A DNA stretch of 54,028 bases from Candidatus Woesearchaeota archaeon (lineage in GTDB: Archaea; Nanobdellota; Nanobdellia; SCGC-AAA011-G17; PNOQ01): positions 2,618 to 56,645 of the forward strand of contig CAYPAI010000002.1 in assembly GCA_964408705.1 (NCBI GenBank). Direction: 5' to 3'. Under the pieces are notes generated by a model. That model searched no databases. It had not been told where the DNA came from and saw nothing but the letters and a program-made list of their open reading frames with translations. The position numbers and the translations under genes were made by a program. Below, piece after piece: positions 9,118 through 42,119 of the stretch (position 1 is its first letter; every line of letters begins with the position of its first letter).

Positions 9118-9600
9118 ATGGAAAATCGAAATAAAAAAGAAATATTGAATGAGTTAGAGAATAAATTTAACTTAATGAAAAAAGATCTAAAATTAAAAAA
9201 TAATCTAGATGAATTTGATGAAAGATTTTCAGTAAGAGATTTTATCCTGTCTGAAGGTTATGTATCTGATAATTTACCTAGGCAATTTGCAAATAGGGTT
9301 GGAAATTATCTTGATATGTGGGTAAACTATCTACACTCATTAGTCATGCCTAATCCTGGATCTATGATTAACCTTACCGAACATGGGATACTTGATGAAG
9401 ATGATAAATCTAAAATAATAAAACTGATAGATGGGATTATGGAACTAACTACATCTAGTGTTTTAGCTGGATTTACACAAACAAACAAAGATAAGTCCAA
9501 ATATCTTAATAATTGTATGGATTTTTGTGATAATAAACTATCTGTGGGATTAATTCCTATTATAAAAAAAATTAATACTAATTGGAAACAAAAGAGTTAG
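9118..9600 (+). CDS. hypothetical protein
   Basis: 160-aa ORF with normal composition, 8 nt after the tRNA. Confidence 0.7.
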   Translation: MENRNKKEILNELENKFNLMKKDLKLKNNLDEFDERFSVRDFILSEGYVSDNLPRQFANRVGNYLDMWVNYLHSLVMPNPGSMINLTEHGILDEDDKSKIIKLIDGIMELTTSSVLAGFTQTNKDKSKYLNNCMDFCDNKLSVGLIPIIKKINTNWKQKS

Positions 9601-10529
9601 TTCCCTATATATTTTGAGTATATACTTAATGCTCTATTTTTTGTTTTTGCTTTTATCATTACTTTATTTTTAAAAAAAGTTATATCTTTGTAAATGAATG
9701 ACTTTCCTAAATCTTTTGAATTTGAATATTTCTTTTTTAATTGATCATAGTTAAAATTTCCATATATCAAATATGTATCTTGTCCACAAAAAGAAATTAC
9801 TTCTTGTTTATTTTTTCCATTTAAATATTCAAAGTTCTTGTTACAAGCTGGACATTTTTTATTCTTCTTTATTTTAATTTTTTCTAATTTATTTTCTTTT
9901 AAATTTAAAAAAAGTAGATTTCTTTCATAATTATCTTTTATTAATATTTTAATGGTTTCACTTACTTGTAAGGAGGAAATTAATGTAGAAATTGTATTCA
10001 TTACTCCAGAACTTTCACAAGTTTCAAGATTTTTTGTTTCCTTTATAAAGCATCTTAGACATGCTTTTTTAGGGATTATGTTATAGATATATCCTGAGTT
10101 TCTTATAACTGCAGAATAAATCCAAGGTATACTATTTTTTATTGAGTATTCATTTATTAAAAATCTTGTACTTAAATTATCTGTACAATCAATAATTATA
10201 TCTGCTTTTAATAAGTTAACATTGTTATAATCTAAATTATCAAAATATGATATTATATTTATTTTAGAATTTATTTTTTTTAGGTTTTTTTCCATAACTT
10301 CTGACTTAGCTTTACCTATATCTTTTTCTGTAAATAAGTGTTGTCTTTGAAGATTTGATTCTTCAATATAATCTCTGTCTATCAAAATTAGATTATTAAC
10401 TCCTGATCTCGTTAAAAGTTCTGCAGAAGAAGATCCAATTGCACCTAGTCCAACTATTGCAACTGTAGACTTACTTAGTTTTTTTTGTTTTTCTTTTCCT
10501 AAAATTTTTTCTTGTCTTGAATATCTCAT
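9597..10529 (-). CDS. ubaA: E1-like ThiF/MoeB/UbaA adenylyltransferase
   Basis: RYSRQ, GLGAIG, DRDYIEESNLQRQ, DCTDN, CLRC and CPAC Zn sites, catalytic-type Cys in ETCESSG. Confidence 0.9.
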   Translation of the reverse strand: MRYSRQEKILGKEKQKKLSKSTVAIVGLGAIGSSSAELLTRSGVNNLILIDRDYIEESNLQRQHLFTEKDIGKAKSEVMEKNLKKINSKINIISYFDNLDYNNVNLLKADIIIDCTDNLSTRFLINEYSIKNSIPWIYSAVIRNSGYIYNIIPKKACLRCFIKETKNLETCESSGVMNTISTLISSLQVSETIKILIKDNYERNLLFLNLKENKLEKIKIKKNKKCPACNKNFEYLNGKNKQEVISFCGQDTYLIYGNFNYDQLKKKYSNSKDLGKSFIYKDITFFKNKVMIKAKTKNRALSIYSKYIGN

Positions 10530-20381: not shown

Positions 20382-20735
20382 ATGAAGCCTTTATTACCAA
20401 GTTTAAGAGAGAAAAAACGGTATGTTGTTTTTGAAATCATAGGGAGTAATTTTCATAAAAAAAAGGCAGAAAAAGATATCATATCTAATATTCTTGGTTT
20501 CATTGGAGAATTAGGATTCTCAAGGGCTAATATAAGATTAATCGATGATTGTTGGGTAAAAAATAAAGGAATAATTAGGGTAAATGTTAAATACTTAGAT
20601 GAATTAAAATTTTCACTAGGTTTGATAAAAAAAATAGATAACAAAAAAGTAATAGTTAATGTTATTGGAGTGTCTGGAATATTAAAAAAGGCTAAAATTA
20701 AATTTATGGAGGAATTAAAGAATGCAACAAAATAG
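20382..20735 (+). CDS. rnp2: RNase P protein Pop5 (Rpp14/Pop5 family)
   Basis: MKPLLPSLREKKRYVVFEI, GIIRV, VIGVSGILKKA. Confidence 0.93.
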   Translation: MKPLLPSLREKKRYVVFEIIGSNFHKKKAEKDIISNILGFIGELGFSRANIRLIDDCWVKNKGIIRVNVKYLDELKFSLGLIKKIDNKKVIVNVIGVSGILKKAKIKFMEELKNATK

Positions 20736-21444
20736 TGCTGCTGCACATCAAATGATGGGATACGATAGATCTAGTATGTTTAGTCCTGATGGTAGGCTTC
20801 TTCAGGTGGAATATGCTAAAAAAACTGTAAAACAAGGTACTTCAATAATTGGTATATCTTGTAAGGAAGGTGTTTTACTTCTTGCAGATAGAAGAACTTT
20901 AGATAAATTGATGGTAGTAGGAAGTGTTGAAAAAGTATTTCAAATAGATGATCATATTGCTTCTGCTGCGGCAGGTATTGTTAGTGATGGTAGAATTTTA
21001 ATAGAAAAAGCACAATTATTGGCTCAGCAACATAGAGTTACTTATGATTCACCAATTGATATATACAGTTTAGTAAAAGAAATATGTAATGTGAAACAAA
21101 CATATACTCAATATGGTGGTGCTAGGCCTTTTGGAGTTTCTTTATTAATTATTGGCGTAGATTCAAAACCAAGATTATTTCTAACAGACCCTACTGGGAT
21201 ACAATGGGAATATAAAGCTACAGCAATTGGTGAATCGGAAGACGAGTTAAAAGAAATTTTATCTAGAGCTTATAAAGAAAATATGAGTTTGGATGATGCT
21301 ACTAACTTGGCTTTAAATTCATTAAAAACGGTACTCTCTAAAAATTTTAGTTTGGATAGATTAGATGGAGGATATATTCGAATTAAGGATAAGAAATTTA
21401 CTAGAATTTCAAAAGATTATCTTAAAAAATGTCTTAAAAAATGA
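20722..21444 (+). CDS. psmA: proteasome alpha subunit
   Basis: [39 protein letters not shown]. Confidence 0.97.
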
Positions 21445-22136
21445 CTGACGTATCATCATCTGTAATTGCAAAATTGAAAAGAAAGGATCACTTATTTGAA
21501 ATTCTTGTAGATTGTGAAAAGGCTATGGATTTTAAGAAAGGTGTTGTTTCTTTAGATGAAGCAGTTGTAACGACAGATATCTTTAAAGATGTAAAAAAGG
21601 GAGAACATGCTTCTGAAAATGACCTTAAAGATATATTTGGAACAGTTGATAACTCAAAAATTATTGAAATAATTCTAAAAGAAGGAGAAATTCAGTTAAC
21701 TACAGAATATAAGAATAAATTAAGAGAGAAAAAAAGAAAAAAAATAATAAATCTTATATCAAGAAATTCTGTTGATCCTAAAACGAATCTACCTCATCCT
21801 CCTCAAAGAATTGAAAACGCTTTGGAAGAAGCTAAAATTAATATAAGTGAGTTTAAAAGTGCAGATGAACAAGTAAAGGATATAGTAAAGAATATAACTC
21901 AAGTATTACCTATAAAATATGAAATTAAAGTTCTTTCTATAAAAATACCTGCAGATGTGACTGGACAAAGTTACCCTATTTTAAAGAGATTTGCAAACAT
22001 TCTTAAAGAGGACTGGCTTAACGATGGTTCATTAAATGTTACTGCAGAAGTTCCAGCTGGACTACAAAATGAACTTTTTGATAAGTTAAACAGTTTAGCA
22101 CAAGGTAGAATAGAAGTTATGGATATTATAAAATAA
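21441..22136 (+). CDS. ribosome maturation factor SBDS/SDO1
   Basis: [41 protein letters not shown]. Confidence 0.96.
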
Positions 22137-22153
22137 TAAGGAGAAAAAATAAA

Positions 22154-22840
22154 ATGAGTAAAATATTAGCAAAAGAAGGAGAAATTGTGGTACCTGGAGA
22201 AGATTTAGCAAAAGGTATTGATTATTTGCCTGGTAAAGGCACATATAGGGAAGGAGAAGAAATTTTATCTTCAGTAATAGGATTATTTAGGTTAGATGGA
22301 AGACTTACAAAAGTTATACCTCTCTCAGGAAAATATATTCCAAAAAGAAATGATATGGTGATTGGAAAAATAGTTGATGTTATGACAGGAGGATGGAGAC
22401 TGGACATAGGTTATCCTTTTAATGCAGGAATATCTCTAAGAGATGCTTCAAGAGATTTTATACCAAATGATGCCAACTTAAGAGATTATTATGATATAGG
22501 AGATTTGGTAGTTGGAAAAATTACAAATATGAAAGGTCCTAAAATAACAGATATTTCTATGACTCTCCCAGGGTGTAGGAAACTTATGGGTGGTAGAATT
22601 ATTAAAGTTGAATCTTCAAGAGTTCCAAGAATTATAGGGAAGGAAGGAAGTATGATATCAATGATTAAAACTTCGACTGGATGTAATATAACTGTTGGAC
22701 AAAATGGTTTGGCTTGGATTTCTGGACCAACTCCAGAAAAAGAACATGAAGCAGTTAAAGCTATATTAAAAGTTAATGACGAAGCTCCTTCAAAGGGGTT
22801 AACTGAAAAAATAAAGAAATTTTTAGAGGGAAAGAAATAA
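22154..22840 (+). CDS. rrp4: exosome RNA-binding subunit Rrp4
   Basis: VVPGE, YIPKRNDMVIG S1 domain, RVPRIIGKEGSMI KH domain, VGQNGLAWI. Confidence 0.95.
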   Translation: MSKILAKEGEIVVPGEDLAKGIDYLPGKGTYREGEEILSSVIGLFRLDGRLTKVIPLSGKYIPKRNDMVIGKIVDVMTGGWRLDIGYPFNAGISLRDASRDFIPNDANLRDYYDIGDLVVGKITNMKGPKITDISMTLPGCRKLMGGRIIKVESSRVPRIIGKEGSMISMIKTSTGCNITVGQNGLAWISGPTPEKEHEAVKAILKVNDEAPSKGLTEKIKKFLEGKK

Positions 22841-22841
22841 A

Positions 22842-23537
22842 ATGGCATATAATAAAAGATTCGACGGTAGAAAATTTGATGAAGTTAGAGAATTAGAAGC
22901 CAAAGTAGGTGTTGTTAAAAGAGCTAATGGAAGTGCAATGTTTAGAATGGGTAAGACTATAGCTATTGCTGCAGTATATGGCCCAAGAGAATTATTTCCT
23001 AGTTTTTTACAAAATCCGACTAAAGGTAGATTAAATTGTGTTTATGATCTTTTGAGCTTTTCAGTGGAAGATAGAAAGAGGCCAGGTCCTTCTAGGAGAA
23101 GTACTGAAGTCTCTTTAGTTATTAGAAACTCACTTGAAGCTTCAGTTGATTTGACAAAATATCCTCTTACAGGGGTAGATATATATGTATATATCACTCA
23201 AGCAGATGCTGGTACTAGAACTGCAGCCATAAATGCTGCTTCATTAGCTTTAGCTGATGCAGGAATACCTATGAAGGATTTGGTAGCTTCTGTTGCAGTT
23301 GGAAAAGTTTCAGATAAAGTTTGTGTTGATCTAGATAAAGAAGAAGAAGATCATTCAGAAGGTGCTACAGATATGCCTGTTGCAATTATGCCTAAGAGTG
23401 GGAAAGTGACATTGCTCCAATTAGATGGAAATATGGCCCAAAAAGAGATAAATGAAGCTTTGAAAATGGCACAAAAAACTTGTAAAGAAATTAACAAAGT
23501 ACAAGTTAAAGCACTAAAGGAGAAATATAAGAAATAA
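22842..23537 (+). CDS. rrp41: exosome catalytic subunit Rrp41
   Basis: DGRKFDEVR, ANGSA, AVYGPRE, RPGPSRRSTE, QADAGTRTA, DMPVA. Confidence 0.96.
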   Translation: MAYNKRFDGRKFDEVRELEAKVGVVKRANGSAMFRMGKTIAIAAVYGPRELFPSFLQNPTKGRLNCVYDLLSFSVEDRKRPGPSRRSTEVSLVIRNSLEASVDLTKYPLTGVDIYVYITQADAGTRTAAINAASLALADAGIPMKDLVASVAVGKVSDKVCVDLDKEEEDHSEGATDMPVAIMPKSGKVTLLQLDGNMAQKEINEALKMAQKTCKEINKVQVKALKEKYKK

Positions 23538-23538
23538 A

Positions 23539-24303
23539 ATGGTAGATTACATTAAAACATTAGTTGATAAGGAAGTTAGAATTGATGGTAGAAAATTTGA
23601 TGAGTATAGAAAACCTGTAAAGATTGAATATGGTGTTTCTAGTAAGGCTGAAGGTTCTGCTAAAGCTATAATTGGTGATACTGAAGTTATAGCAGGTGTG
23701 AAATTTAAAGTTGGTGAACCTTACTCAGATAATCCTGATGAAGGAACTTTGATTACTACTGCAGAATTATTGCCTTTATCCTCTCCAGAGTATCTTCCTG
23801 GACCACCTAAAGAAAATGCTATAGAATTATCTAGGATAATAGACAGAGGGATAAGGGAATCCAAGATGATTGATATGAAAAAATTGTGTATCAGAAGTGG
23901 TGAGTTAGTTTGGACAGTTTTCTTAGATATTTATACTATAAATGATGATGGAAACTTGATAGATGCTGCAGCATTAGCAGCATTAGCAGCACTTAAGTCT
24001 GCAGTTTTACCTAAACTAGAAAATGATCAAATAATGTATGGTCAACTTACTAAAACAAAAGTCCCATTAAATGTTGTTCCAGTAACTTCTACAATTATAA
24101 AGATAGGTGATAAACTTATGGTAGATCCTTGTTTGGAAGAACAAGAAGCAATGCAAGCTAGACTAAGTGTAGGTGTTTCTGAAGAAGGAAATATTCATGC
24201 AATGCAGCTTGGAAGTATTGGAGGATTAACTCCTAATGAAGTTGATCAAGCAATAGGGATGGCAAAAAAAACTACTCGGATTCTAAGGAAGGCATTAAAA
24301 TGA
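23539..24303 (+). CDS. rrp42: exosome subunit Rrp42
   Basis: RIDGRKFDEYR, KAEGSA, GEPYSDNPDEG, IELSRIIDRGIRES, DDGNLIDA. Confidence 0.96.
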   Translation: MVDYIKTLVDKEVRIDGRKFDEYRKPVKIEYGVSSKAEGSAKAIIGDTEVIAGVKFKVGEPYSDNPDEGTLITTAELLPLSSPEYLPGPPKENAIELSRIIDRGIRESKMIDMKKLCIRSGELVWTVFLDIYTINDDGNLIDAAALAALAALKSAVLPKLENDQIMYGQLTKTKVPLNVVPVTSTIIKIGDKLMVDPCLEEQEAMQARLSVGVSEEGNIHAMQLGSIGGLTPNEVDQAIGMAKKTTRILRKALK

Positions 24304-30114: not shown

Positions 30115-30573
30115 ATGAAAGTTGGAGATAAACTATCAAACTTTTTATTAAAAGATAGAAATGGAGTTATGCACTCATTGAGAGATATAACTTCGGATTA
30201 TATCATTTTATACTTTTATCCGAAAGATAATACCCCTGGGTGCACTATTGAGGCCAATAAATTTAATGAAGATATAAAAAAATTTAGAAAGATGAATGCT
30301 GAAATAATTGGAATATCTGGTGGAAATGAAAAAACAAAAGATAAATTTTGTAATGCTAATAATTTGAAGATATTGTTATTATCTGATACGGACTTTAAAA
30401 TTTCAACTAAGTATGGCCTTTATGGTGAAAAATCATTTATGGGTAGAAAGTATATGGGAATATCAAGAGTTACTTTTATTTTAGATAAAAATAAAAAAAT
30501 AATAAAAATATATGATAAAGTTAAACCACTTACACACTCTAAAGAGGTTTTAAAGTTTATAGAAGATTTATGA
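30115..30573 (+). CDS. bcp: peroxiredoxin Bcp/PrxQ
   Basis: LYFYPKDNTPGCTIEA, IIGIS, LLSD, GISRVTFILD. Confidence 0.94.
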   Translation: MKVGDKLSNFLLKDRNGVMHSLRDITSDYIILYFYPKDNTPGCTIEANKFNEDIKKFRKMNAEIIGISGGNEKTKDKFCNANNLKILLLSDTDFKISTKYGLYGEKSFMGRKYMGISRVTFILDKNKKIIKIYDKVKPLTHSKEVLKFIEDL

Positions 30574-31223
30574 TGACAGATATAGGCAAAGTTTATGATA
30601 TATTGAAGAAAGAAGTGATTAACTATAACGTTCCTGTTGTGAATATAATTCAAGTTCAAACAAAAGATCCATTTAAAGTTTTAATTACAACTATTTTATC
30701 TGCAAGGACAAAAGATGAAGTTACGTACTTAGCTGCAAAAAAATTATTTTCTAAAATTAAAAATATAAAAGATTTAGAAAAAATATCTAAAAAAGATATT
30801 GAAAAATTGATATATCCTGTTGGATTCTATACAACTAAAGCTAAAAATTTAAAATTATTACCTAAAATTCTAAAAAAAGAATTTAATAATATTATCCCCA
30901 ACACTGTTGAAGAACTAATTAAATTACCTGGTGTTGGAAGAAAAACAGCAAACTTAGTAGTTACTATAGCATTTGATAAACATGCAATTTGTGTAGATAC
31001 TCATGTTCATAGGATTATGAACAGATTGGGTTATATTAAAACAAAAACACCACATGAAACTGAGATGAGACTTAGAAAAAAATTACCAAAAAAATATTGG
31101 AAAACAATAAACTCTATTTTAGTTGCATTTGGACAAAATACATGCAAACCAATTTCTCCGTTTTGTAGTAAATGCCCGGTTTATAATGAATGTAAGAGAA
31201 TAAATATAAAAAAATCAAGATAA
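30570..31223 (+). CDS. nth: endonuclease III
   Basis: LITTILSARTKD, HhH LPGVGRKTA, VDTHVHR, C-terminal C-x6-C-x2-C-x5-C Fe-S motif. Confidence 0.95.
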   Translation: MMTDIGKVYDILKKEVINYNVPVVNIIQVQTKDPFKVLITTILSARTKDEVTYLAAKKLFSKIKNIKDLEKISKKDIEKLIYPVGFYTTKAKNLKLLPKILKKEFNNIIPNTVEELIKLPGVGRKTANLVVTIAFDKHAICVDTHVHRIMNRLGYIKTKTPHETEMRLRKKLPKKYWKTINSILVAFGQNTCKPISPFCSKCPVYNECKRINIKKSR

Positions 31224-32900
31224 TACTGCATTAGAAAGTACAACCACATCAAGTACATTATACCCGCCATCACCATTAATATCAAATGAACAACTGCAAG
31301 ATGATGAGAGAACACAATTAACAAGACTTACAACGTCTAACACGTTAGTAGAACCATCTCCATTTAAATCAAAAGTTTGAGATCTTTTAACACAACTCCT
31401 GGAGTTATAAATTTCCGTAGTTGACATTATACAAGCGCCTTCTGAAAATTCATTACACCATTCTTCAATCCAAACTAATTCTGCACCATAATAACTACAA
31501 TCATCTGGATTATTTAAACACCAGGATTCATCGATATTAGGTGTACATCCAGTTGAATTTTCCCAACACCAATAATTACAGTAATGGAAGTCACATCCAG
31601 TTGCCTCATCACAACTTTCATCAGAATAACTACTATTCTCTCCACTTTCAAGAATATCTAAATGAATTGGACATCCGCAATATTCAGAAATACAATTACC
31701 TTCACAATTGAATCCTTCTTGAGCATACTCACAACTTCCATCATCTACTGTAGCATCAGGTTTATAGTTACAAGCAGTAGTGTCTGTACACCCTAAAACC
31801 CCTCCTACACATTCTCCCCAATAATCTACTGAAACCCCCGCTTGTTGGGCATGGCATGCACCCCAATAAGTAATAGCATCACAACCACAAACTGGCTCAT
31901 AAGCTCCACTCTGGGTACATTCCACATTCCAAGTCATACATTCACCAAAATCAGCAGTACATTCATCAAATCTACAAAATTCTTCCAAACCACAATCTAC
32001 ATCATTGCTACAATAAATAATATTTCCTGAACACTGGCCCGCATAATCTACAGACCAACCATTGGAATGAGCATCACAAATATTTCCATAAGTAACACCA
32101 TTACAACCACAAACAGGATCATATTCAGTATTACAATCTACAGGCATAGTTATACATTCGCCATTGGCACCCATACAAGTTCCATCTTGATAATAACAAA
32201 AAGAATCAGCACTACACATAGAGTTATCTAAACAATAGCTGGGTCCTTCTCCACAATCAAATCCCGGTTCTGCATAATGACACAATCCAGGGTATAAAGG
32301 AACACCTGAATCATCATAGTAATAAATAATTTCAGGATCATAATTGCAAGCTTCTTCATCTAGGCAAACAAAGAAATATCCCAATGGAATTGAAGTAAAG
32401 GAAATTGGTAAAATACTCTCTCCATTTTCATTAAAAACTGATATTGGAATCGTTGTTCCACCAATATCAGGACTTATAAAAAATCCACCATCAAAAACAT
32501 AATCATCATTAAGGGGGACATAAAAAAGAATATCATTACTACTTGAAGGAGGAATCAATGGCCCAGTACTGTATCCAGATATAGTATACCCTCCATCTCC
32601 ATATTCACCTACACTCATTGCAAAATCAAATTGTTCTGATAACCCTCCGTACGGTTGGAAAATTTCAAATCCTTCACCTCCCCCAATTAGATTTATTTGA
32701 AAACTACTAATATAATGTTCACAATTATTAATTTTGATAAACATATACTCTGGAAAATTTTCACTTTCATATTCACTCCAATCAAGATCTAATTCTAAAG
32801 AACATTCAAAATCATAACTTCTTTCAGGAGACCTCTCAGGAGAGCATCCAGAACTAATTAAAACAATAATTAAAAATAAACTTAAAATACCTCTTTTCAT
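31215..32900 (-). CDS. Cys-rich surface lipoprotein with Kazal-type domains and C-terminal dockerin-like EF-hand repeats
   Basis: Lipobox-like ISSG-C19; two PVCGC...TY...C.A...G Kazal motifs; two (G)C.D..ACNY repeats; DLNGDG..NVLDVV.L / DINGDG..NVLDVV.L. Confidence 0.8.
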   Translation of the reverse strand: MKRGILSLFLIIVLISSGCSPERSPERSYDFECSLELDLDWSEYESENFPEYMFIKINNCEHYISSFQINLIGGGEGFEIFQPYGGLSEQFDFAMSVGEYGDGGYTISGYSTGPLIPPSSSNDILFYVPLNDDYVFDGGFFISPDIGGTTIPISVFNENGESILPISFTSIPLGYFFVCLDEEACNYDPEIIYYYDDSGVPLYPGLCHYAEPGFDCGEGPSYCLDNSMCSADSFCYYQDGTCMGANGECITMPVDCNTEYDPVCGCNGVTYGNICDAHSNGWSVDYAGQCSGNIIYCSNDVDCGLEEFCRFDECTADFGECMTWNVECTQSGAYEPVCGCDAITYWGACHAQQAGVSVDYWGECVGGVLGCTDTTACNYKPDATVDDGSCEYAQEGFNCEGNCISEYCGCPIHLDILESGENSSYSDESCDEATGCDFHYCNYWCWENSTGCTPNIDESWCLNNPDDCSYYGAELVWIEEWCNEFSEGACIMSTTEIYNSRSCVKRSQTFDLNGDGSTNVLDVVSLVNCVLSSSCSCSFDINGDGGYNVLDVVVLSNAVLS

Positions 32901-32951: not shown

Positions 32952-33575
32952 ATGAATAATTTAGTAGAACAAATAAAGAATATTAATCTAGATATAAAAT
33001 CTAAAGTAAATCAAAGGATCAAAGAATTTGAATCATTTCAAAATAAAAATACAGAAGAATGGTTTTCTGAATTATGTTTTTGTTTGCTTACTGCAAATTC
33101 TAAGGCTCAAACAGCGATTAATATTCAAAATCAATTAAACTACGAAGGATTTTATAATTTAAAAGAAAGGGAAATAAGTAACGTAATTAAAAAAAATAAA
33201 CATAGATTTCATAACAATAAGGCAAAATATATAGTTGAAGCAAGAAAGCATAGAAAAATTAAGGATATAATAAAAAATAAAGAAGAAAAGGAATCGAGGA
33301 TTTGGCTAGTAGATAATATTAAGGGTTTAGGGTACAAAGAAGCTTCACACTTCTTAAGAAATGTTGGGTACAAAAATTTAGCAATTTTAGATAGACATAT
33401 ATTGAGGTCAATGAAAGAAAATAATCTAATAAAAAGTATACCAAGTACACTAAACAAAAAAAATTATGAAGAAATGGAGTATAAACTACACGAAGTATGT
33501 ACTGAGACAAATCTTTCGATGGCAGAATTAGACATTTACATTTGGTACTTAGAAACTAATAAAGTTCTAAAATAA
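32952..33575 (+). CDS. ogg: 8-oxoguanine DNA glycosylase/AP lyase (archaeal/Thermotoga Ogg type)
   Basis: FSELCFCLLTANS, RFHNNKAKYI, IKGLGYKEASHFLRNVG, AILDRHILR, LDIYIWY. Confidence 0.93.
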   Translation: MNNLVEQIKNINLDIKSKVNQRIKEFESFQNKNTEEWFSELCFCLLTANSKAQTAINIQNQLNYEGFYNLKEREISNVIKKNKHRFHNNKAKYIVEARKHRKIKDIIKNKEEKESRIWLVDNIKGLGYKEASHFLRNVGYKNLAILDRHILRSMKENNLIKSIPSTLNKKNYEEMEYKLHEVCTETNLSMAELDIYIWYLETNKVLK

Positions 33576-33608
33576 ACACTTATAAGCTATATTTAATTCG
33601 ATTTATTT

Positions 33609-34661
33609 ATGAAATTAGATATAGATAAACTAGATATTGGAAAAATTTTAAATTATTCAATAGATCCATTTAACTCATATAAACTATTAAAAAGGGAATT
33701 AAAAGAAGTTTCGAAATCCTTAGAAGAAAGATTTTTTTTTGGCTATGAGTTATTAGATAATTTTCAACAACATGTTAATATCAATAATTATGGTGGAAAA
33801 TTTGCAAATAAGGTGGTAAGAACTAGATATGATCTTCTTGATAACCTAATGAGTAGTAGACCTAAAAATATGGTTTCAAAATTAAAAAAATTTTATAGAA
33901 TTTATCATAAAGGTGAACAAACTCATAATCGGAAGCACCCTTTAAAAAGGACTGGACTAGACACAAAATATATTGAATTATGCCTGTATACTCATAAATG
34001 GAGACAAAAGGTAGAAAAAAAGGATTCAAAAGAAGATCAATCATTTTATCAAATTCTAAAAAATACAAAATTCGATAGATGTAATCTTTTGATTCAGAAT
34101 AATCCTAATCAAAATCATATTTTTCATTCCGTATTTCAAAGGCAAAAATCAAAAAAATCAATAATAGATAAACTAATCAGTAAGACTATGCAAGATATTG
34201 AAACTACTAATATCTATCCAAAGAGATTTTATAATCTGAATTACAATATAAAAGACTTTTTTGCAATGAGAATTTGTAGTCCTCGTTTAGGAAGAAGGGC
34301 TAGAGCTAAAATAAATGAATTAATAACTTATGAAGGGCAGTTGGGTAAGAGAAAAGTTCATAATAATGAGTGGATTTCTATAAATAAGGTCGACTATACA
34401 AAAAATAATGATATAAACATAAACCACATAAAACATTATCTTAGGACTGTAGATTATCCTATTGCTCCTTTAATAGAAGTACAATTCTCAACATTAGAGG
34501 ATATGTTACTTGATGAATTTTTTACTGCATCAGGACATTTACTTAAGGAAAGAAAACGGAAAAGTAAACTAAAAAAGGGAAGAAAGAAAAATAGTGATGT
34601 AGAAGAAATACAAAAAAGAGTAAAAGGTAGGCTTGATATAGTTTTAGACTTCTTAGACTAA
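33609..34661 (+). CDS. RelA/SpoT synthetase-domain (SAS-like) nucleotidyltransferase
   Basis: RQKSKKSIIDK, IKDFFAMRIC, VDY...H and IEVQFSTLEDMLLDEFFTASGH occur in RSH synthetase motif order. Confidence 0.65.
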   Translation: MKLDIDKLDIGKILNYSIDPFNSYKLLKRELKEVSKSLEERFFFGYELLDNFQQHVNINNYGGKFANKVVRTRYDLLDNLMSSRPKNMVSKLKKFYRIYHKGEQTHNRKHPLKRTGLDTKYIELCLYTHKWRQKVEKKDSKEDQSFYQILKNTKFDRCNLLIQNNPNQNHIFHSVFQRQKSKKSIIDKLISKTMQDIETTNIYPKRFYNLNYNIKDFFAMRICSPRLGRRARAKINELITYEGQLGKRKVHNNEWISINKVDYTKNNDININHIKHYLRTVDYPIAPLIEVQFSTLEDMLLDEFFTASGHLLKERKRKSKLKKGRKKNSDVEEIQKRVKGRLDIVLDFLD

Positions 34662-35218
34662 ATTCTATTTGAAACTACTTTCCAATTGATTGAATTGAAA
34701 AATGACTCAATATAGTCTACTCTTTTTAATCCATAATCTGTCATAAATGCGTGTTCAAATACATCCATTACTAATAAAGGATTAGATCCTGCAAGACTTC
34801 CCAAATCATGTTCATTTATCCATAAATTAAATAATTTTTCTGAATCCTTATCATAAGCTAGAATCACCCATCCTATTCCCCTAGTTAAACCAGTTTGTTT
34901 GAAGTCTTTTTCCCAAGCCTCATAAGATCCGAAATTATCAATAATTTTTTTATATAAGTCTTTACTATCATTTAATGGCTGAAAGTCCTTAGTAAGATTA
35001 TCAAAATATAATTCATGGAGCCTCATACCATTAAACTCCCAACCAAACCTTCTTTTAAGTTCACCATATTGGTAAATCTCACAATTTTCTAGAAGGTTAA
35101 TAACATTATTTGTATTTGTAACGTATCCTTGATATAATGTAAAATGATTTTTTAATAATTCATCGCTAAACCCTTCTAATCCTAGTAACTTTTCGTAGTT
35201 CTTTGCTTGATATGTCAT
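34658..35218 (-). CDS. sod: Fe/Mn superoxide dismutase (short, ChrC-like subtype)
   Basis: NHFTLYQGYV, FNGMRLHELYFDNL, GWVIL, DVFEHAF metal ligands. Confidence 0.9.
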   Translation of the reverse strand: MTYQAKNYEKLLGLEGFSDELLKNHFTLYQGYVTNTNNVINLLENCEIYQYGELKRRFGWEFNGMRLHELYFDNLTKDFQPLNDSKDLYKKIIDNFGSYEAWEKDFKQTGLTRGIGWVILAYDKDSEKLFNLWINEHDLGSLAGSNPLLVMDVFEHAFMTDYGLKRVDYIESFFNSINWKVVSNRI

Positions 35219-35249: not shown

Positions 35250-36353
35250 TTAACTGTAAATAAAAATCTTATCATTAACTCTTACCCTTTCGGATACTGG
35301 GAACGTAACTAAATCTTGTTTGTTACATTCATTGATTGTATTACGATCTCCATTTCTTAATTCATTGATTTTTTGTTCAAATTTTTTTGTAGTTTTACCT
35401 TCGATCAAAATTTTAGAATCTTTGCTTAATTTATCTATAGTTTTAATTTCTGCAACCCCTTTTTTAACAAAATAGTTTGTTACTATACCTAAAACTTTTT
35501 TATTTCTTATTTTTGGTCTTTGTCTAGATGAACTACTACATAACTTGGAACAATTTTTGTTCATATCGATTTGACAATCTGGGCAACAGATAAATAATCT
35601 ATCACAATCCATATTATGGCAATTAATATATTCGTCAGAACTTAGTTTACAGTAATAGCAAGTTGTGATAGCTTTGTTGGTATAGGCAACCAATCTATCA
35701 TCAAAAACAAACAAATTACCTTCAAAGTTATCATCATTAACATTATTAAGATAGTTTATTATGCCGCCTTTAAGTTGATTTACGTTTCTAAATCCTTTTT
35801 CTCTGAGATATGCGGAAGCCTTTTCACACCTAATTCCACCTGTGCAATACATAACTATCTTCTTATGTTTATCTAAATGTTTACTTTTCTCTGGAAATTC
35901 TCTAAAGTTATTAAGGGATAAAGTTTTAGCACCCTTAAACTTACCAATATTGATTTCATAATCATTTCTTGCATCTAAAAGAATAATATCTTCTTTCTTA
36001 TCTATCATTGATCTTAGTTCTTTGGGTTCAATGTGTTTTCCTGCTTTTCTCAAATCAACATCTCTACCAAATTTAACAACTTCTTTCCTAGATTTAACAA
36101 TTAATTTATGATAAGCGTTTTCCTCACAATTATGTGTCCTAAAAGTTAATTCATCAAAAATATTACAAATATCAGATTTGAATTTATAGATATCTTCCTT
36201 TTTACCTGATACTCCTGCATTAATGCCTTCCTTACCAATGATAATCCTACCTAAAAGATTTAATTCTTCGCATAGTAATCTGATACTATCTCTAAGATCT
36301 TCAGGATGTTTTATATTTTCATACTTATAAAAAGTTATAACAGAATAATCCAT
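35250..36353 (-). CDS. trhO: TrhO/YceA (UPF0176) rhodanese-domain tRNA U34 hydroxylase with extra C-terminal beta-barrel
   Basis: ITFYKY, GRIIIGKEGINA, LDARNDYEINIGKFKGA, YCTGGIRCEKAS, LKGGIINY, FVFDDR, NC.N.DC; tail GIVTNYFVKKGVAEI...RVRVNDKIF. Confidence 0.85.
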   Translation of the reverse strand: MDYSVITFYKYENIKHPEDLRDSIRLLCEELNLLGRIIIGKEGINAGVSGKKEDIYKFKSDICNIFDELTFRTHNCEENAYHKLIVKSRKEVVKFGRDVDLRKAGKHIEPKELRSMIDKKEDIILLDARNDYEINIGKFKGAKTLSLNNFREFPEKSKHLDKHKKIVMYCTGGIRCEKASAYLREKGFRNVNQLKGGIINYLNNVNDDNFEGNLFVFDDRLVAYTNKAITTCYYCKLSSDEYINCHNMDCDRLFICCPDCQIDMNKNCSKLCSSSSRQRPKIRNKKVLGIVTNYFVKKGVAEIKTIDKLSKDSKILIEGKTTKKFEQKINELRNGDRNTINECNKQDLVTFPVSERVRVNDKIFIYS

Positions 36354-36633: not shown

Positions 36634-38073
36634 ATGACATTAGACCTTACAGTTAAGGAATTATACTCAAAACTTAAAAATCAGGCAAAAAAATCAGAGA
36701 TTCATACAGTTTCCATGACAAATAATAGTATAAATCATTATATCTCAAATAATTATAATGAAAAAGATTATTTGAAAGTTGAAGACCTTAATGAAGTAAA
36801 AGATATTAATTTTGTAAACACAACTTCAATGGGAATTTTTGGATCTAATGAACAACCCAGCTATACTTCTTTGAAAGAATATATGGGCTCTCATGAGTTC
36901 AGGGAAAAAGATAATGATGGGGAAGTAGTATTTGTCTATGGAAATAGAAGTAAACTACCTCAAGTATTTGTTATGCATAATCATTTTTTAGGCCCCGGTA
37001 TAGGAGGATTAAGAGAATTTGATTATAAAAAACAATATGGGAAATATTATCTAGATTCAATGCTTATTGATTCATTAAGGTTAGCTGAAGCAATGACTTA
37101 TAAGGGTGCCATTAATGAGACTGCTTCTGGCGGAGGTAAAGCAGCTAGATCAAATAAAAGACTGACACTAGAAGAGAAAGAAAATACAAAACTAGTTGAA
37201 AAATATGATACGTTGAGAAGTCATGCAAATTTAGAACTTGCAACCTCATTAAATATAATAAATGATCTAAGAATAAAGAGGGGAGTTTATCCTTATTTTA
37301 CTGCAGAAGATGTTGGTACAAGTTGCAGCGATTTTGATGAAATGTTTTCAAGAACTAAATATTCTATTTGTAAATCTGTATCTTTTGGAGGTACAGGAAA
37401 TCCTTCTCCCTACACTGCAATAGGTACAGTTTATAGTATGATTGAAGGAGCAAAAAGAGCTTTTGAAATACAAAGTAATCCTTTGGAAGATAAAACAGTT
37501 TTACTTGAAGGCTTGGGGAATTGTGGAATAGAAGTATTGAAACATCTAGTAAATTATAATGCAAATGTGAAAGCAACAGATATACAAAGAACCTCTATAG
37601 AAAGAGCTAAACTTGAATTGGGAGATCATTCAAACAAGGTTGATTTTTTACACTATAATAAAGATAAAATAAAAAAAGACCCATTTATTTTTATAAGGGA
37701 AAATAAGGGAGATATATACTCTCCATGTGCATTAGGTGCAAGAATAAACAAAGAAACTAGAAGATTATTGTATGATAATGGTATAAAACTTATAGCAGGG
37801 AGTGCAAATAATCAACTAACAAATGAAGAACATGATAGCGAGGTACTATTTAGGAGTAAAATCTGGTTCCTACCAGATTATGTTGTTAATGCTGGAGGAT
37901 TGATTAACGCCAGACAAGAACTTCCAGATGTTTTACATAGGATGGATAATGTAGTAAATATGGCAAAGGATAGATCTAAAGTTGTATCAAATATTTTAGA
38001 TGTTAGTATTAAAGAAAAAATACCCCCATTAGAAGCTGTTCAAAGAATAGTAAAAAAAAGATTAAAGGAATAA
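36634..38073 (+). CDS. Glu/Leu/Phe/Val dehydrogenase (LeuDH/ValDH subtype) with N-terminal extension
   Basis: GPGIGGLR, LRLAEAMTYK, GGGKA, TAEDVGT, GLGNCG, SPCALG, AGSANNQL, PDYVVNAGG. Confidence 0.9.
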   Translation: MTLDLTVKELYSKLKNQAKKSEIHTVSMTNNSINHYISNNYNEKDYLKVEDLNEVKDINFVNTTSMGIFGSNEQPSYTSLKEYMGSHEFREKDNDGEVVFVYGNRSKLPQVFVMHNHFLGPGIGGLREFDYKKQYGKYYLDSMLIDSLRLAEAMTYKGAINETASGGGKAARSNKRLTLEEKENTKLVEKYDTLRSHANLELATSLNIINDLRIKRGVYPYFTAEDVGTSCSDFDEMFSRTKYSICKSVSFGGTGNPSPYTAIGTVYSMIEGAKRAFEIQSNPLEDKTVLLEGLGNCGIEVLKHLVNYNANVKATDIQRTSIERAKLELGDHSNKVDFLHYNKDKIKKDPFIFIRENKGDIYSPCALGARINKETRRLLYDNGIKLIAGSANNQLTNEEHDSEVLFRSKIWFLPDYVVNAGGLINARQELPDVLHRMDNVVNMAKDRSKVVSNILDVSIKEKIPPLEAVQRIVKKRLKE

Positions 38074-38851: not shown

Positions 38852-40903
38852 CTATTGTAAAACGCTTACATGGTCTTTTTTATCTAACTTTATTATATTT
38901 TCAACAAAGCTTTCAATTTTGTTCTCATGGCTAACTAAAATTACTTGTTTAATATTTAATGATTCTAATACTATACGTAACCTATCTAACTGAGATTCAG
39001 AAAAACCATCTGTTGGTTCATCCAGAATAATTAAATCTTTAGTTTTAATAGAAGTCATTAAATTATTGATAACTTGATTTAAGGCTAATCTATAAGCTAA
39101 AGCGGCAGCTGTCTTTTCCCCACCTGATAAATGCAAATAATTAGTATCATATCCATTTTGATTTATGATAGGAGTAAAACTTTCATCTATTCTAATCTTT
39201 AACAAATCGTTATCAATAAGAATATTAAACCAGTCACTAAACAACTTATCGAAATCAGAAAATGCCTTTAGCATTATCTTTTTTTCAATTAATTCCATTA
39301 AATTAATAAATTCTTTCTCTAAAAAAAATTGTAGGTCTACCAGTTTGGTTGCATTTATTTTAATTTTTTCCTTTCTTATTATTTCTAGATCTAAGGAATT
39401 AACAAATTTCTTATTAGAAATTATGTCACGTTCAAAACCAACTTTTTCTGATTCTATTTTTCTTAATTTTTCTAATAAACTTTCTAATTCTAACTTTAAG
39501 CCAGAATAAACTTCATTCAGATTAGTAAATTCTAAAATTTCTTTATTTAATTCTTTCAATTCTATATTTAATCTATCAACTTTTTTTAATATTAACATAT
39601 TTTCTTTTTCTAAGTTATTTTTTCTTAACTTTTTTTCTTCAATAGACTTTATTTTTAGTTTTATTAATTCAATTTCTCTTAATTTTTCTCTAAGATTCTC
39701 TAATTCCTTATTTAAATTATCTAAATTTCTTTCTTTTAATTGTAAACTTGAAGAAAAAAAAGTTAGATTAGATTCTGCCCCTAAGATCATCTTATCTTGT
39801 TCAGAAAAAACTCCAGATTTATATTCATCACCAACTAATTGCTTACAAGTTGGGCAGATCTCTAATTCATGAAACTTACCTTTAATATCTTTACTATGTT
39901 CAATTTTAATTTCATAAGTTCTAATTGTATGTTTTATTGCATCTAACTTTCTAGTTAATTTTGAAATTTCTTCTTTTTTAGAATCAATTGACTTAATTAG
40001 TTCTTCAGAATTAAAGACTTTGTCAATATTAGTATTTTTTATTTCTTGTTCTAGATTCTTGGACTCATTTTTATTCCTTTCAATTTGAGATAGGATAGAT
40101 TCTAATCTTGTATTCTTAACTGAAATTTTTGTTTTAAAATCATTTAATTTTATTATTTTATCTTCAATTAGTTTAATTTCTTCTTTTTTAGAATTAATTC
40201 TTTTATTAGACTCCTCGTGCAAAGGGATAAGTTTGTATAGAGATTTCTCTAAAATTTCTATCTTAACTAAAAAATCTTCTTTTGAAACCTTTTTTTCTTC
40301 TAAATCTGAAATCATACCTGATAACTCTTTAATTTTTAATTTTATTTTAGAAACAAAAAATTTAGTGTTATTAATTATTGTTTTATATTTTTCAATTCCA
40401 AAAACTCTTCTTAATATATCTAATCTTTCTGAAGGATTTTCTAAAAGAATATGTTTCATTTCTTCTTGAGGCGTATATACAGTATACCTATAAATTAAAT
40501 CTTTGCTTTTAGTTAAAACTTCTTGAGGGTAATTAAGTAAATTTATTATTTCTTGTTTTAATTCCACTGTACTTAGATCCTTTCTTTCTTTATCTATTTC
40601 TATATAACCTGGATCTTGAATTATAGATTTTTTTCCCCTAGAAAGATTTCTTTTTATCTTTATTTTTTTATTTTTAATTTCAAAACTTAATTCTACTGAA
40701 CCTTTATCTTTTCCATTTCTTAACAAAGATGCTCCTGGTAAAGTTGTCCTTCTAGTGCCGAATAATGCAAATTCAGTAGCTAAGAGAATTGTTGACTTGC
40801 CTGTCCCAATATCCCCACTTAAAAGTATAGATCCTGTTGGAAAATTAATTTCTGTATTTTCATAACTTCTAATATTATTTAATTTAATATTTCTAAGGAT
40901 CAT
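38852..40903 (-). CDS. rad50: DNA double-strand break repair ATPase Rad50
   Basis: NIRSY, GDIGTGKST, Q-loop YTPQEE, CPTC zinc hook, LSGGEK, LILDEPTDG, VSHE. Confidence 0.93.
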   Translation of the reverse strand: MILRNIKLNNIRSYENTEINFPTGSILLSGDIGTGKSTILLATEFALFGTRRTTLPGASLLRNGKDKGSVELSFEIKNKKIKIKRNLSRGKKSIIQDPGYIEIDKERKDLSTVELKQEIINLLNYPQEVLTKSKDLIYRYTVYTPQEEMKHILLENPSERLDILRRVFGIEKYKTIINNTKFFVSKIKLKIKELSGMISDLEEKKVSKEDFLVKIEILEKSLYKLIPLHEESNKRINSKKEEIKLIEDKIIKLNDFKTKISVKNTRLESILSQIERNKNESKNLEQEIKNTNIDKVFNSEELIKSIDSKKEEISKLTRKLDAIKHTIRTYEIKIEHSKDIKGKFHELEICPTCKQLVGDEYKSGVFSEQDKMILGAESNLTFFSSSLQLKERNLDNLNKELENLREKLREIELIKLKIKSIEEKKLRKNNLEKENMLILKKVDRLNIELKELNKEILEFTNLNEVYSGLKLELESLLEKLRKIESEKVGFERDIISNKKFVNSLDLEIIRKEKIKINATKLVDLQFFLEKEFINLMELIEKKIMLKAFSDFDKLFSDWFNILIDNDLLKIRIDESFTPIINQNGYDTNYLHLSGGEKTAAALAYRLALNQVINNLMTSIKTKDLIILDEPTDGFSESQLDRLRIVLESLNIKQVILVSHENKIESFVENIIKLDKKDHVSVLQ

Positions 40904-42119
40904 CCCAAACTTCTCCTAAATTTAGACTTTTGATTAAATTTTTTTCCAATCTTTTCTCAAAGTCATAATTCTTTTCTCCCCCTAATTTCTCTTCAGCTAA
41001 AACTTCTTTTAGATTAGAGAGACTTTCTTTAGTAAATTTTAAGTTTGAATCTTGATTTGAAAACTCTTCAATTAGTTTGTCCTCAACTTTATCAATATCT
41101 GTTGGGTCAATCTCTAGTCCTTCTACTTCTTTATTTTGGAGTTTATTCGTATTTTTTAAAACAATATAAGCATCTTCTAATCTGTCAAATATTTCATTAA
41201 AATTGATATCTGAGACTTTTCCACTAGATAAACTACCTTTAACTCTTAATGTGACTATTTTATCTTTAACATCTATTTTGGAAACTTTCTCTAAAATGAA
41301 ATCTTGAGCTTCTGATGAAGTTTTTTTATCAATCTTAATGTTTATTTTTTCAACCTTCTTGGGCTCAATAAACTCATATCTCAAATCACTTATTTTATTA
41401 TTATTTACTTCAACAATATAAAATCCTCCTCCTCCAAACTTTTCTAACTCCATAAAATTATTTGGAAATGTAGCCCCAGGGTAAGTAATCAAACCATACT
41501 TTTCAGGATTTGAATCAAAAATAACATGAGGGTGTCCTCCTGCATAATAATCAAAACCTTTTGGAAATTTATCCAGATCTATACCTTCAACCATCTCCAT
41601 AAGCTTTGGTTTGTATTCATTTATTATGTGATGGAATAAAAATATTTTGAATCCTTCTTCATGTTCTAAGTTAGATTTATCTAAAATCTCATAGTCTAGT
41701 TTTTCTAAACCTTTTGCCTTCCCATACAGTCCAGCTAGTTTTACCCCTGTTTTATCTATTGTAAAATTTAACTTTAATGTATCTTTTCCCCTTTCAGCCT
41801 TCATTACATTAATAACTAGGCCTGAATTTTCAAAGACATCTAACATTGTCTTTCCTGAAGGACTGAAATCATGACTTCCCGGAATTATGTAGCATTCTAT
41901 TTCACTATCTTTTAATTTTCTAAGAATTAGGCTAACTTCTTTAATCAAGTCTATGTTTGGTAATGCCGTATCAAATAAATCTCCTGAAATAATAACAAAT
42001 GCAACTTTTTCTTCTATACACCTATCTATTCCTAGTCTAAATGATTCTGTGCTCATGATATTTAGCTTATCTTCCTTCCAACCACCTATATGTACATCAG
42101 AAAAGTGTGCAAATTTCAT
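40893..42119 (-). CDS. mre11: DNA repair nuclease Mre11
   Basis: FAHFSDVHIG, SGDLFD, IPGSHD, FHH, AGGHPH, YPG; overlaps rad50. Confidence 0.93.
   Translation of the reverse strand: MKFAHFSDVHIGGWKEDKLNIMSTESFRLGIDRCIEEKVAFVIISGDLFDTALPNIDLIKEVSLILRKLKDSEIECYIIPGSHDFSPSGKTMLDVFENSGLVINVMKAERGKDTLKLNFTIDKTGVKLAGLYGKAKGLEKLDYEILDKSNLEHEEGFKIFLFHHIINEYKPKLMEMVEGIDLDKFPKGFDYYAGGHPHVIFDSNPEKYGLITYPGATFPNNFMELEKFGGGGFYIVEVNNNKISDLRYEFIEPKKVEKINIKIDKKTSSEAQDFILEKVSKIDVKDKIVTLRVKGSLSSGKVSDINFNEIFDRLEDAYIVLKNTNKLQNKEVEGLEIDPTDIDKVEDKLIEEFSNQDSNLKFTKESLSNLKEVLAEEKLGGEKNYDFEKRLEKNLIKSLNLGEVWDDP

Follow-up and report, generated by a model that had tools for sequence, protein, structure and literature searches.

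The window analysed here, 54,028 nucleotides from the genome of a Candidatus Woesearchaeota archaeon (GenBank assembly GCA_964408705.1, contig CAYPAI010000002.1, positions 2,618 to 56,645), carries on its forward strand, at 33609..34661, an open reading frame (ORF) that begins with ATG and encodes, stop codon included, a 350-amino-acid protein resembling the synthetases among the RelA/SpoT homologs (RSH), a protein superfamily. We refer to gene and protein as SYN. A sequence-only reading of the window, made without database searches, had drawn attention to this ORF as an orphan small alarmone synthetase (SAS) of RelA/SpoT type, and the ORF list bears out its position, strand, start and length. 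Ratios of dN/dS between 0.09 and 0.17 within the window's clade indicate purifying selection and therefore a functional gene. Profile searches, a predicted structure and the genomic contexts of the homologs suggest that SYN represents a variant of the RSH synthetase family that is restricted to DPANN archaea, is invisible to Pfam and is probably an active pyrophosphokinase.

The first 150 residues of SYN (33609..34058; like all features of the gene described below, on the forward strand) form a family-specific helical domain, delimited by the alignments and by an AlphaFold2 (AF2) model, in which helices are predicted at residues 10-18, 28-58, 73-82, 86-101 and 116-136. Conserved in this domain are DP (P20), G45, RP (84-85) and YTHxWRQ (127-133). 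Searches of Pfam, NCBIfam and the PDB, the last by sequence and by fold, returned no relatives of it, in keeping with the earlier statement that the N-terminal part of about 150 residues is unrecognised. A synthetase/nucleotidyltransferase domain of RSH (RelA_SpoT) type follows at residues ~155-310 (34071..34538), as delineated by AF2, Foldseek, hmmsearch and Pfam, with a core of the order beta-alpha-beta-alpha-beta-beta-beta-alpha. The protein ends with H310, part of an HxxxYK-type motif, and a Lys/Arg-rich helical tail of residues 311-350 (34536..34658 including H310), recognised from conservation, composition and the AF2 model, in which helices span 310-327 and 329-345. The isoelectric point (pI) is 9.8 for the whole protein and 10.35 for the tail. 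Pfam detected no HD, TGS or ACT domain in the 350 residues: SYN does not have the one-polypeptide architecture of the long RSH enzymes, and the earlier observation that it lacks an HD hydrolase domain stands.

Within the C-terminal 190 or so residues, the motifs VFQRQKSKKSIIDKL, IKDFFAMRIC, VDYTKNNDININHIKH and LIEVQFSTLEDMLLDEFFTASGH follow one another in the order that the sequence-only reading had given. The Escherichia coli motifs that it had quoted for comparison are also exact, starting at residues 249, 274, 308 and 334 of the K-12 RelA sequence. The stretch R178-x-K180-x3-S184-x3-K188 (34140..34172) is in register with SRVKSFESIVNKL of YwaC/RelP; in RSH enzymes, this RxKxxxSxxxK motif binds the triphosphate and the adenine of ATP. 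In an alignment of 37 sequences from the SYN family (A2), to which all residue counts out of 37 refer, K180 is invariant (37/37), K188 is present in 36 sequences, and position 178 is Arg in 31 and Lys in 5. Further downstream, D216-FFA-M-R221 (34254..34271) corresponds to the DxxGxR motif and aligns with HDIAGVRII of RelP/RelQ. In RSH enzymes the Asp of this motif binds Mg2+ and the Arg stacks against adenine; D216 is found in 37/37 and R/K221 in 36/37 members. The position of the catalytic Glu lies in E290-V-Q292-F-S-T295 (ExQxRT motif; 34476..34493), whose counterpart in RelQ/YjbM is VEIQIRT. The window's protein and its clade have E290-V-Q292, the nearest outgroups of that clade (P0006-P0009) also keep Glu at 290, and Q292 occurs in 28/37 sequences. 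H310 is conserved in 32 members and replaced by Arg in the remaining 5. No other positions in the family are conserved as strongly as the residues of the ATP and Mg sites, so the conservation among homologs that had been named as a check is indeed found.

The acceptor side looks different. The region equivalent to the guanine-recognising loop, or G-loop, D262-Y-TKNNDININHIKH-Y277 (34392..34439), was located by a HMMER alignment to DYIQHPKENGYRSLH of RelP. The Tyr of RelP that stacks on guanine aligns with I271, a position that is aliphatic in 33/37 members, and H273 is present in only 11/37. The canonical PKxxGY(R/Q)SxH loop is thus replaced throughout the SYN family, as had been noted for the window's protein itself. 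Because of this replacement, the acceptor would not be recognised as GDP or GTP is in canonical enzymes, and SYN falls outside the (p)ppGpp-specific SAS families. The non-GDP acceptor that the sequence-only reading had proposed is an inference from this loop.

The assignment to the RSH superfamily is carried by profile and fold comparisons. When the A2 profile was compared with the PDB (hmmsearch, 177,635 sequences), all 11 matches at E<10 were RSH synthetases. YwaC was the best (E=9.1e-4), Staphylococcus aureus RelP reached 7.6e-3, and YjbM/RelQ, SAS proteins of Streptococcus pneumoniae and Streptococcus mutans, and FaRel2 were among the rest; these alignments bring RxKxxxSxxxK, DxxGxR and ExQxxT into register. 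A Pfam scan of all A2 members gave PF04607 as the sole recurrent family. The window's protein itself stays below the threshold of PF04607, and 5/37 family members give weak or sub-threshold matches, the best at E=4.1e-5. An AF2 model calculated from the 37-sequence alignment has a pLDDT of 87.0 and a pTM of 0.87. In a Foldseek search of the PDB with this model, ranks 1-35 are all RSH synthetases, with E-values down to 2e-4 and probabilities up to 1.00; they include RelP (6fgx, E=2e-4, probability 1.00), SAS1 (5ded), RelSeq, CapRel, FaRel2 and an exported SAS. The first other fold in the list is the JHP933 nucleotidyltransferase at E=0.66. In the viral structure library BFVD, the top two matches are a Tas1-like protein and a phage RelA/SpoT. 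The predicted model thus shows the catalytic domain to have the RSH synthetase fold, and not another one, which was the outcome that would have spoken against the sequence-only reading. Profile, fold and conservation agree on an RSH-type synthetase fold with intact donor-ATP and Mg residues and a non-canonical acceptor loop. By the combined fold and profile evidence, the SYN family is part of the RSH superfamily, although it lies below Pfam's own threshold.

The closest known relatives by both profile and fold are RelP (YwaC/SAS2) and RelQ (YjbM/SAS1) of Firmicutes (PDB 6fgk, 6ewz, 6fgx and 5ded). They share with SYN the beta-alpha-beta-alpha-beta3-alpha core, and the RxKxxxSxxxK, DxxGxR, ExQxxT and HxxxY motifs come in the same order and register. 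However, sequence identity is only ~13-16%, and SYN differs by its additional N-terminal helical domain of ~150 residues, its basic C-terminal tail, the replaced PKxxGY(R/Q)S loop, the missed PF04607 threshold, its occurrence in DPANN archaea only, and the frequent Gln in place of the catalytic Glu in the family. What is new compared with the known RSH synthetase domain is the N-terminal domain, the acceptor loop, the partnership with a separate gene described below, and the DPANN-restricted distribution.

The family is small. In a collection of 5.8 billion proteins, 8 close homologs of SYN were found (aligned as A1), and 36 clusters among 1.84 billion proteins provided representative homologs. 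The homologs are all 330-400 amino acids long and share a common full-length architecture; wherever they carry a name it is 'hypothetical protein', and no source lists a precomputed Pfam domain for them. Word-indexed searches with the A2 profile and with a profile of the hydrolase partner introduced below (A3) extended neither family, and an A1 search of the GTDB species genomes yielded only 4 loci. With 8 sequences, the AF2 model was unusable (pLDDT 43.7) and the profile gave spurious matches only in the PDB (7o21, CEF1), and a PDB phmmer search with SYN alone returned only the spurious CEF1 match. SYN members were found only in DPANN-type contexts, in metagenome-assembled genomes (MAGs) of Woesearchaeota that originate from groundwater, TARA samples, the Yap trench and the Black Sea. 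One locus, L007 (CAZVVW010000003.1), is labelled 'uncultured Methanosarcinales archaeon'. Its gene order is that of the Woesearchaeota locus L001, its SYN is 75% identical to the one there, and the bin label is probably wrong.

Most of the family has a partner. Of 8 contexts outside the window's clade, at least 6 have a gene for a divergent HD hydrolase of RSH type directly upstream of SYN and on its strand. For members that are 30-37% identical to the window's SYN, this gene encodes 423-439 amino acids and ends 7-13 nucleotides before SYN (L001, 4722-5993; L007, 5692-6978; L009, 5617-6936); homologous upstream genes also adjoin the SYN members P0018, P0009 and P0024 at L013, L014 and L016. 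Proteins of the partner family have 400-440 residues, with an RSH-type HD core between extensions of ~140 residues at the N-terminus and ~120 at the C-terminus. Like SYN, they are listed as 'hypothetical protein' in NCBI and JGI and have no precomputed Pfam domain. Against the PDB, the A3 profile matches HD domains of (p)ppGpp hydrolases, namely Lmo0812 (3.7e-4) and Acinetobacter SpoT (6.4e-4), as well as Rel, Mesh1 and MESH1, and all three orthologs give weak Pfam HD_4/HD matches, HD_4 (PF13328) remaining below its gathering score at E=0.002-0.012. The HD signature is invariant (R152, H161-P, H185-D186-x-x-E189-E and K296-L-x-D299-x-x-x-N303), and the core reads HP…HDxxEE…KLxDAIDNT, with metal ligands and an ED-type diad in place. 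The description of SYN as an orphan is therefore true for the window's clade, but elsewhere in the family SYN directly follows the HD hydrolase gene.

Judging by this arrangement in most of the family, the ancestral unit looks like an HD-SYN pair, with the genes ordered as the two catalytic domains are in Rel. The likeness to long bifunctional Rel (N-terminal half of RelSeq, PDB 1vj7 / 24io) extends to the R...HP...HDxxE[DE]...KLxDxxxN signature of the partner. In contrast to Rel, the two activities are encoded by separate genes, TGS and ACT regulatory domains are missing, the HD protein carries its two extensions, and in the window's clade no HD gene is nearby. Synteny around SYN is conserved within DPANN down to ~30% identity.

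Two other genes recur near SYN. In distant relatives, a PUA-domain protein of ~150 residues (PF13636, with a faint NIP7 pre-PUA match) is encoded right after SYN or one gene further (L001, 7622-8080, reverse strand; L009, 7960-8418, reverse; L012, 1905-2360, reverse; L015, 6770-7234, reverse; L016, 6188-6640, forward). At L016 the start of the PUA gene overlaps the SYN stop codon; the window has no counterpart. The window does hold a Rad50/Mre11 pair at 38852-42119 on the reverse strand, ~4-7 kb downstream of SYN, and at L001 an Mre11-like gene (3068-4273, 45% identical) is placed just upstream of the HD-SYN pair with no Rad50 adjacent to it. Such a placement of Mre11 in distant relatives may be residual synteny.

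In the window's clade, SYN sits in a different setting. Immediately upstream on the same strand, at a distance of 33 nucleotides, is the gene for the 8-oxoguanine DNA glycosylase Ogg (32952..33575; Pfam Ogg-HhH, E=1e-65), and on the opposite strand a Fe/Mn superoxide dismutase (SOD) gene (34658..35218; Sod_Fe_C, E=5e-27) converges on SYN with a 3' overlap of 4 nucleotides. Pfam and the ORF positions thus confirm the two neighbours that had been named earlier. The SOD matches only the C-terminal Sod_Fe_C model, its N-terminal half being divergent. Further upstream, also on the forward strand, an AhpC/peroxiredoxin gene (30115-30573) and the gene of an Nth-like HhH-GPD glycosylase (30570-31223), both identified by Pfam, mark the start of a clade-conserved block. 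The AhpC-Nth pair upstream of SYN and the convergent 4-nucleotide overlap between SYN and SOD both recur in L005, L019, L020, L021 and L022, while the state of Ogg varies: it is upstream in L019 and L020, frame-disrupted in L005 and absent from L021 and L022. Overall, at least four related genomes share the AhpC-Nth-(Ogg)-SYN-SOD block, although their flanks differ. The oxidative-stress neighbourhood that had been pointed out for the window is consequently a feature of the clade, and its conservation suggests that SYN may be tied there to the oxidative-stress response.

Between ogg and SYN lies a TATA-box-like element, TTATAAGC (33580..33587, forward strand), 22-29 nucleotides upstream of the SYN start codon. 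It is found at the same distance in L005, L019 and L021, despite a different upstream gene, and could serve SYN as a separate archaeal promoter, giving an mRNA with a short leader or none; this putative assignment is to be read against a genome that is ~72% A+T. A scan for sigma-70 promoters and intrinsic terminators found fewer sites than in shuffled sequences, but these are bacterial signals and do not apply to an archaeon.

Some details of the block differ between genomes. An apparent intergenic gap upstream of SYN in L005 (5500-5965) is an ogg with a disrupted frame, either a pseudogene or an assembly error; a weak A2 match to a small ORF there was rejected as a low-complexity artefact, the ORF being the C-terminal part of the disrupted ogg. 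L019, the locus of P0001, has a 167-residue ORF between ogg and SYN (9474-9977), which we dismissed as an HD partner since it is similar neither to that family nor to anything in the window. A ParE/MazE pair is encoded 3.5 kb upstream in L019 (6021-6505) and occurs also in L005. In the window's genome alone, a gene on the reverse strand (31215-32900) separates nth from ogg; it encodes a Cys-rich protein of 561 residues that starts with a lipoprotein-like signal (…LISSGCS…), contains inhibitor repeats of Kazal type and has a dockerin domain at the C-terminus. The blocks of L005, L019 and L021 lack this gene.

With moderate confidence, we regard SYN as an active ATP-dependent pyrophosphokinase, most plausibly one with a free-nucleotide, alarmone-like product. 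The window's protein keeps the residues that serve the donor ATP (R178, K180, S184, K188 and R221) and Mg2+ (D216 and E290), together with Q292. It would move the beta,gamma-pyrophosphate from ATP onto the ribose 3'-OH of an acceptor, which would be bound differently from GDP or GTP in canonical enzymes; we lean towards a free nucleotide in this role. In most of the family, the cognate HD hydrolase would remove the product again, making the two proteins a make-and-break pair for a 3'-pyrophosphorylated compound, and the ancestral unit would have been a split 'Rel N-terminal half' with separate HD and SYN genes. The marine Woesearchaeota clade of the window would then have lost the adjacency to the HD gene and would express SYN from its own TATA-like element within the oxidative-stress block.

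Several observations weigh against an active enzyme of this kind. Searched as a single sequence against Pfam, SYN matches PF04607 at only 8.1 bits (E=4.4), far from the gathering score of 27, next to a spurious NLRC4_HD2 match, and the NCBIfam search gave no match. All structural evidence comes from a predicted model. Its Foldseek matches have TM-scores of no more than 0.2-0.4 and a large root mean square deviation over long alignments, which we attribute to the inclusion of helices that pack differently; superposition of the core is also moderate (4.9 A across 127 columns in one case, 6.7 A across 132 in another). No meaningful alignment was obtained between the A2 hidden Markov model (HMM) and the synthetase region of E. 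coli RelA. The Gly of the DxxGxR motif (G219), present in 31/37 members, is Ala in the window's protein. A synthetase without an opposing hydrolase would be unusual, and the 54 kb of the window hold neither a homolog of the HD partner nor a canonical SAS or small alarmone hydrolase (SAH); no HD partner was found within 6-10 kb on either side of SYN in three relatives of the window's clade. Outside that clade, the upstream genes of 520 residues in L010 and 496 residues in L015 were rejected as HD partners, since they show motif-level resemblance only, with no significant HMM, Pfam or PDB support. Lastly, according to a 2023 review, no archaeon has ever been found to contain (p)ppGpp (PMC10249747).

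The main alternative, though unlikely, is that SYN modifies RNA, pyrophosphorylating tRNA at its 3'-CCA end, or some other RNA at its 3' end, as FaRel2, PhRel2 and CapRel do with tRNA. It would thereby throttle translation, with the HD partner of the relatives reversing the modification; in the window's clade, it would be triggered by stress to slow translation. The replaced guanine loop fits this proposal, as does the presence of CapRel and FaRel2 among the structural and sequence matches, but the best matches are the housekeeping enzymes RelP and RelQ and not the tRNA-targeting toxic SAS (toxSAS) proteins. The pyrophosphorylation of tRNA can be undone by SAH enzymes, and FaRel2 has basic patches that guide the tRNA (bioRxiv 10.1101/2021.04.30.441581). 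SYN and particularly its tail are very basic, but a high pI is expected for any protein of a Lys-rich proteome encoded at 28% GC, and we judged it weak as a sign of RNA binding. Furthermore, the G-loop Tyr needed by FaRel2 (Y128) has no conserved aromatic counterpart in SYN. Translation- or RNA-related neighbours are found in distant relatives (the PUA-domain protein in five contexts, GatD, aIF-2 and Trm1), whereas the window has neither a bicistronic toxin-antitoxin architecture nor an adjacent neutralising gene.

It is less likely still, but a serious rival reading, that SYN is a catalytically dead or repurposed RSH fold, serving as an ATP- or nucleotide-binding sensor or as a regulatory subunit, perhaps of the HD hydrolase in the relatives. 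The inactive domains of RelA and SpoT are a model for such a role. Glu is present at position 290 in only 12/37 members, Gln in 17, and with a residue other than Glu (Gln, Ser, Thr and others) in 25/37, a large part of the family may have altered catalysis or none, which also weakens the argument from conservation for our preferred reading. The earlier statement that the ATP-site and ExQ residues match is accordingly correct for the window's protein, where R/K/S/K, Asp and Glu are all present, and does not extend to the family as far as the Glu is concerned. The invariant residues of SYN are nucleotide-binding ones only, the large conserved N-terminal domain has no catalytic signature, and the HD partner looks fully competent, whereas SYN is variable. 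On the other hand, the window's clade and P0006-P0009 keep R178, K180, S184 (S, T or R), K188, D216, R/K221, E290, Q292, T295 and H310 under purifying selection, and the Mg ligand D216 is invariant even where E290 has been lost.

The idea that SYN is a horizontally acquired toxin or defence effector, whether of the toxSAS or the CapRel-like, anti-virus type or as a weapon of an episymbiont against its host, is very improbable in our view. Toxins are numerous among divergent SAS enzymes (bioRxiv 10.1101/575399). The placement of HD ahead of SYN is reminiscent of type IV toxSAS/SAH systems, and ParE/MazE pairs lie a few kb away in L005 and L019. The toxSAS proteins FaRel2, CapRel and PhRel2, with their SAH-type (type IV) antitoxins, are comparable in being divergent SAS enzymes with altered acceptors (the tRNA CCA end or adenine nucleotides) and a hydrolase that can reverse the product, and they are among the structural matches. 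Their bicistronic organisation is formally present in the distant relatives of SYN, with HD 7-13 nucleotides upstream, but the upstream gene in the window's clade is ogg or the 167-residue ORF. No neutralising gene adjoins SYN in the window, as the sequence-only reading had noted when it found no antitoxin-like neighbour; SYN stands alone in this clade and is conserved nevertheless. PADLOC (PADLOC-DB v2) gave no matches for SYN or the HD partners, and a scan of viral contigs revealed no SYN relatives. GC content is uniformly 23-33% across the window, in a genome of ~28% GC, and that of SYN equals its flanks. The contexts are housekeeping, chromosomal and syntenic across deep divergence (30-37% identity) within DPANN, and SYN has neither a signal peptide nor a secretion-associated neighbour; a mobile or defence context and a conserved G-loop Tyr are likewise missing. 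Together with the purifying selection, these findings argue against the anti-host or anti-virus effector that the sequence-only reading had offered as one of two possible roles.

That SYN is not an RSH protein at all, but another minimal nucleotidyltransferase fold (for example MNT/AbiEii/JHP933-like) with convergent motifs, is barely credible: the missed Pfam gathering threshold, the TM-scores below 0.5 and the JHP933-type nucleotidyltransferases lower in the Foldseek list stand against 35 consecutive top fold matches and 11/11 profile matches to RSH proteins, with other nucleotidyltransferases only at E>0.6, against the presence of the RSH-specific RxKxxxSxxxK and HxxxY motifs, and against a conserved partner that is itself an RSH-type HD protein.

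To our knowledge, signalling of the (p)ppGpp type is seen as a matter essentially of bacteria (and plastids), and the known archaeal RSH genes are few and are treated as sporadic transfers. RSH-superfamily proteins have been described from archaea, including DPANN, before: divRel of Methanosarcina acetivorans, Mesh1-L and pbcSpo (PMC3153485; PMC8407392). Atkinson et al. found archaeal RSHs to be only sporadic and attributed them to transfer from bacteria (PMC3153485), and a comparative study of DPANN reported 'RelA/SpoT' annotations in 41.7% of Woesearchaeota, likewise attributed to bacterial transfer (PMC8407392). Given these annotations in DPANN genomes, the premise of the sequence-only reading that archaea generally lack a stringent response is too strong. 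In contrast to SYN and its HD partner, which are unannotated and syntenic across DPANN lineages, the earlier archaeal RSHs were found by standard HMM or eggNOG annotation. As neither SYN nor the HD protein has an annotation or a precomputed Pfam domain, both would have been missed by the earlier censuses.

A DPANN-restricted family of RSH-fold synthetases thus escapes standard annotation and is usually paired with an equally invisible RSH-type hydrolase. Related archaea with adjacent SYN and HD genes may therefore hold an unrecognised make-and-break pyrophosphate signalling pair. Should the proteins be active, two small recombinant proteins would allow a direct test of whether archaea use alarmone-like nucleotides, the RSH synthetase chemistry known for ppGpp, ppApp and tRNA-CCA would gain a further acceptor specificity, and the pair would be a natural split Rel, relevant to the evolution of the bifunctional enzyme. 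For the window's clade, the relocation into the AhpC-Nth-Ogg-SOD block provides a concrete hypothesis, namely signalling upon oxidative stress. We see SYN as a solid, testable lead into archaeal alarmone-like chemistry. A more far-reaching but unlikely scenario would make the DPANN genes an ancient, vertically inherited, split Rel-like system that produces a 3'-pyrophosphorylated messenger other than (p)ppGpp, or such an RNA end; the window's clade would have separated the synthetase from its hydrolase and placed it within the oxidative-stress regulon (AhpC-Nth-Ogg-SOD), which would be the first alarmone-type stress signal in archaea.

The remainder of the window is an ordinary segment of archaeal chromosome, with genes for PEP synthase, XPD, an Elp3-like radical-SAM protein, Rad50/Mre11 and RNase J. 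Five consecutive genes on the forward strand (20722-24303) can be read as the archaeal exosome superoperon, with proteasome alpha subunit, SBDS-like protein, Rrp4, Rrp41 and Rrp42 in succession; Rrp41 and Rrp42 are paralogous to each other (27% identity, E=2e-12). This run marks the window as archaeal, and with Woesearchaeota MAGs as the closest relatives, the archaeal source that had been supposed from the letters alone is secured. A gene on the reverse strand (35250-36353) encodes a UPF0176/rhodanese (TrhO-like) protein whose additional C-terminal part matches Peptidase_U32_C, an unusual fusion of two families that are linked to tRNA U34 hydroxylation. It is followed on the forward strand (36634-38073) by the gene of a 479-residue Glu/Leu/Phe/Val-dehydrogenase-like protein, which has an N-terminal extension of ~110 residues and matches both domain models weakly.

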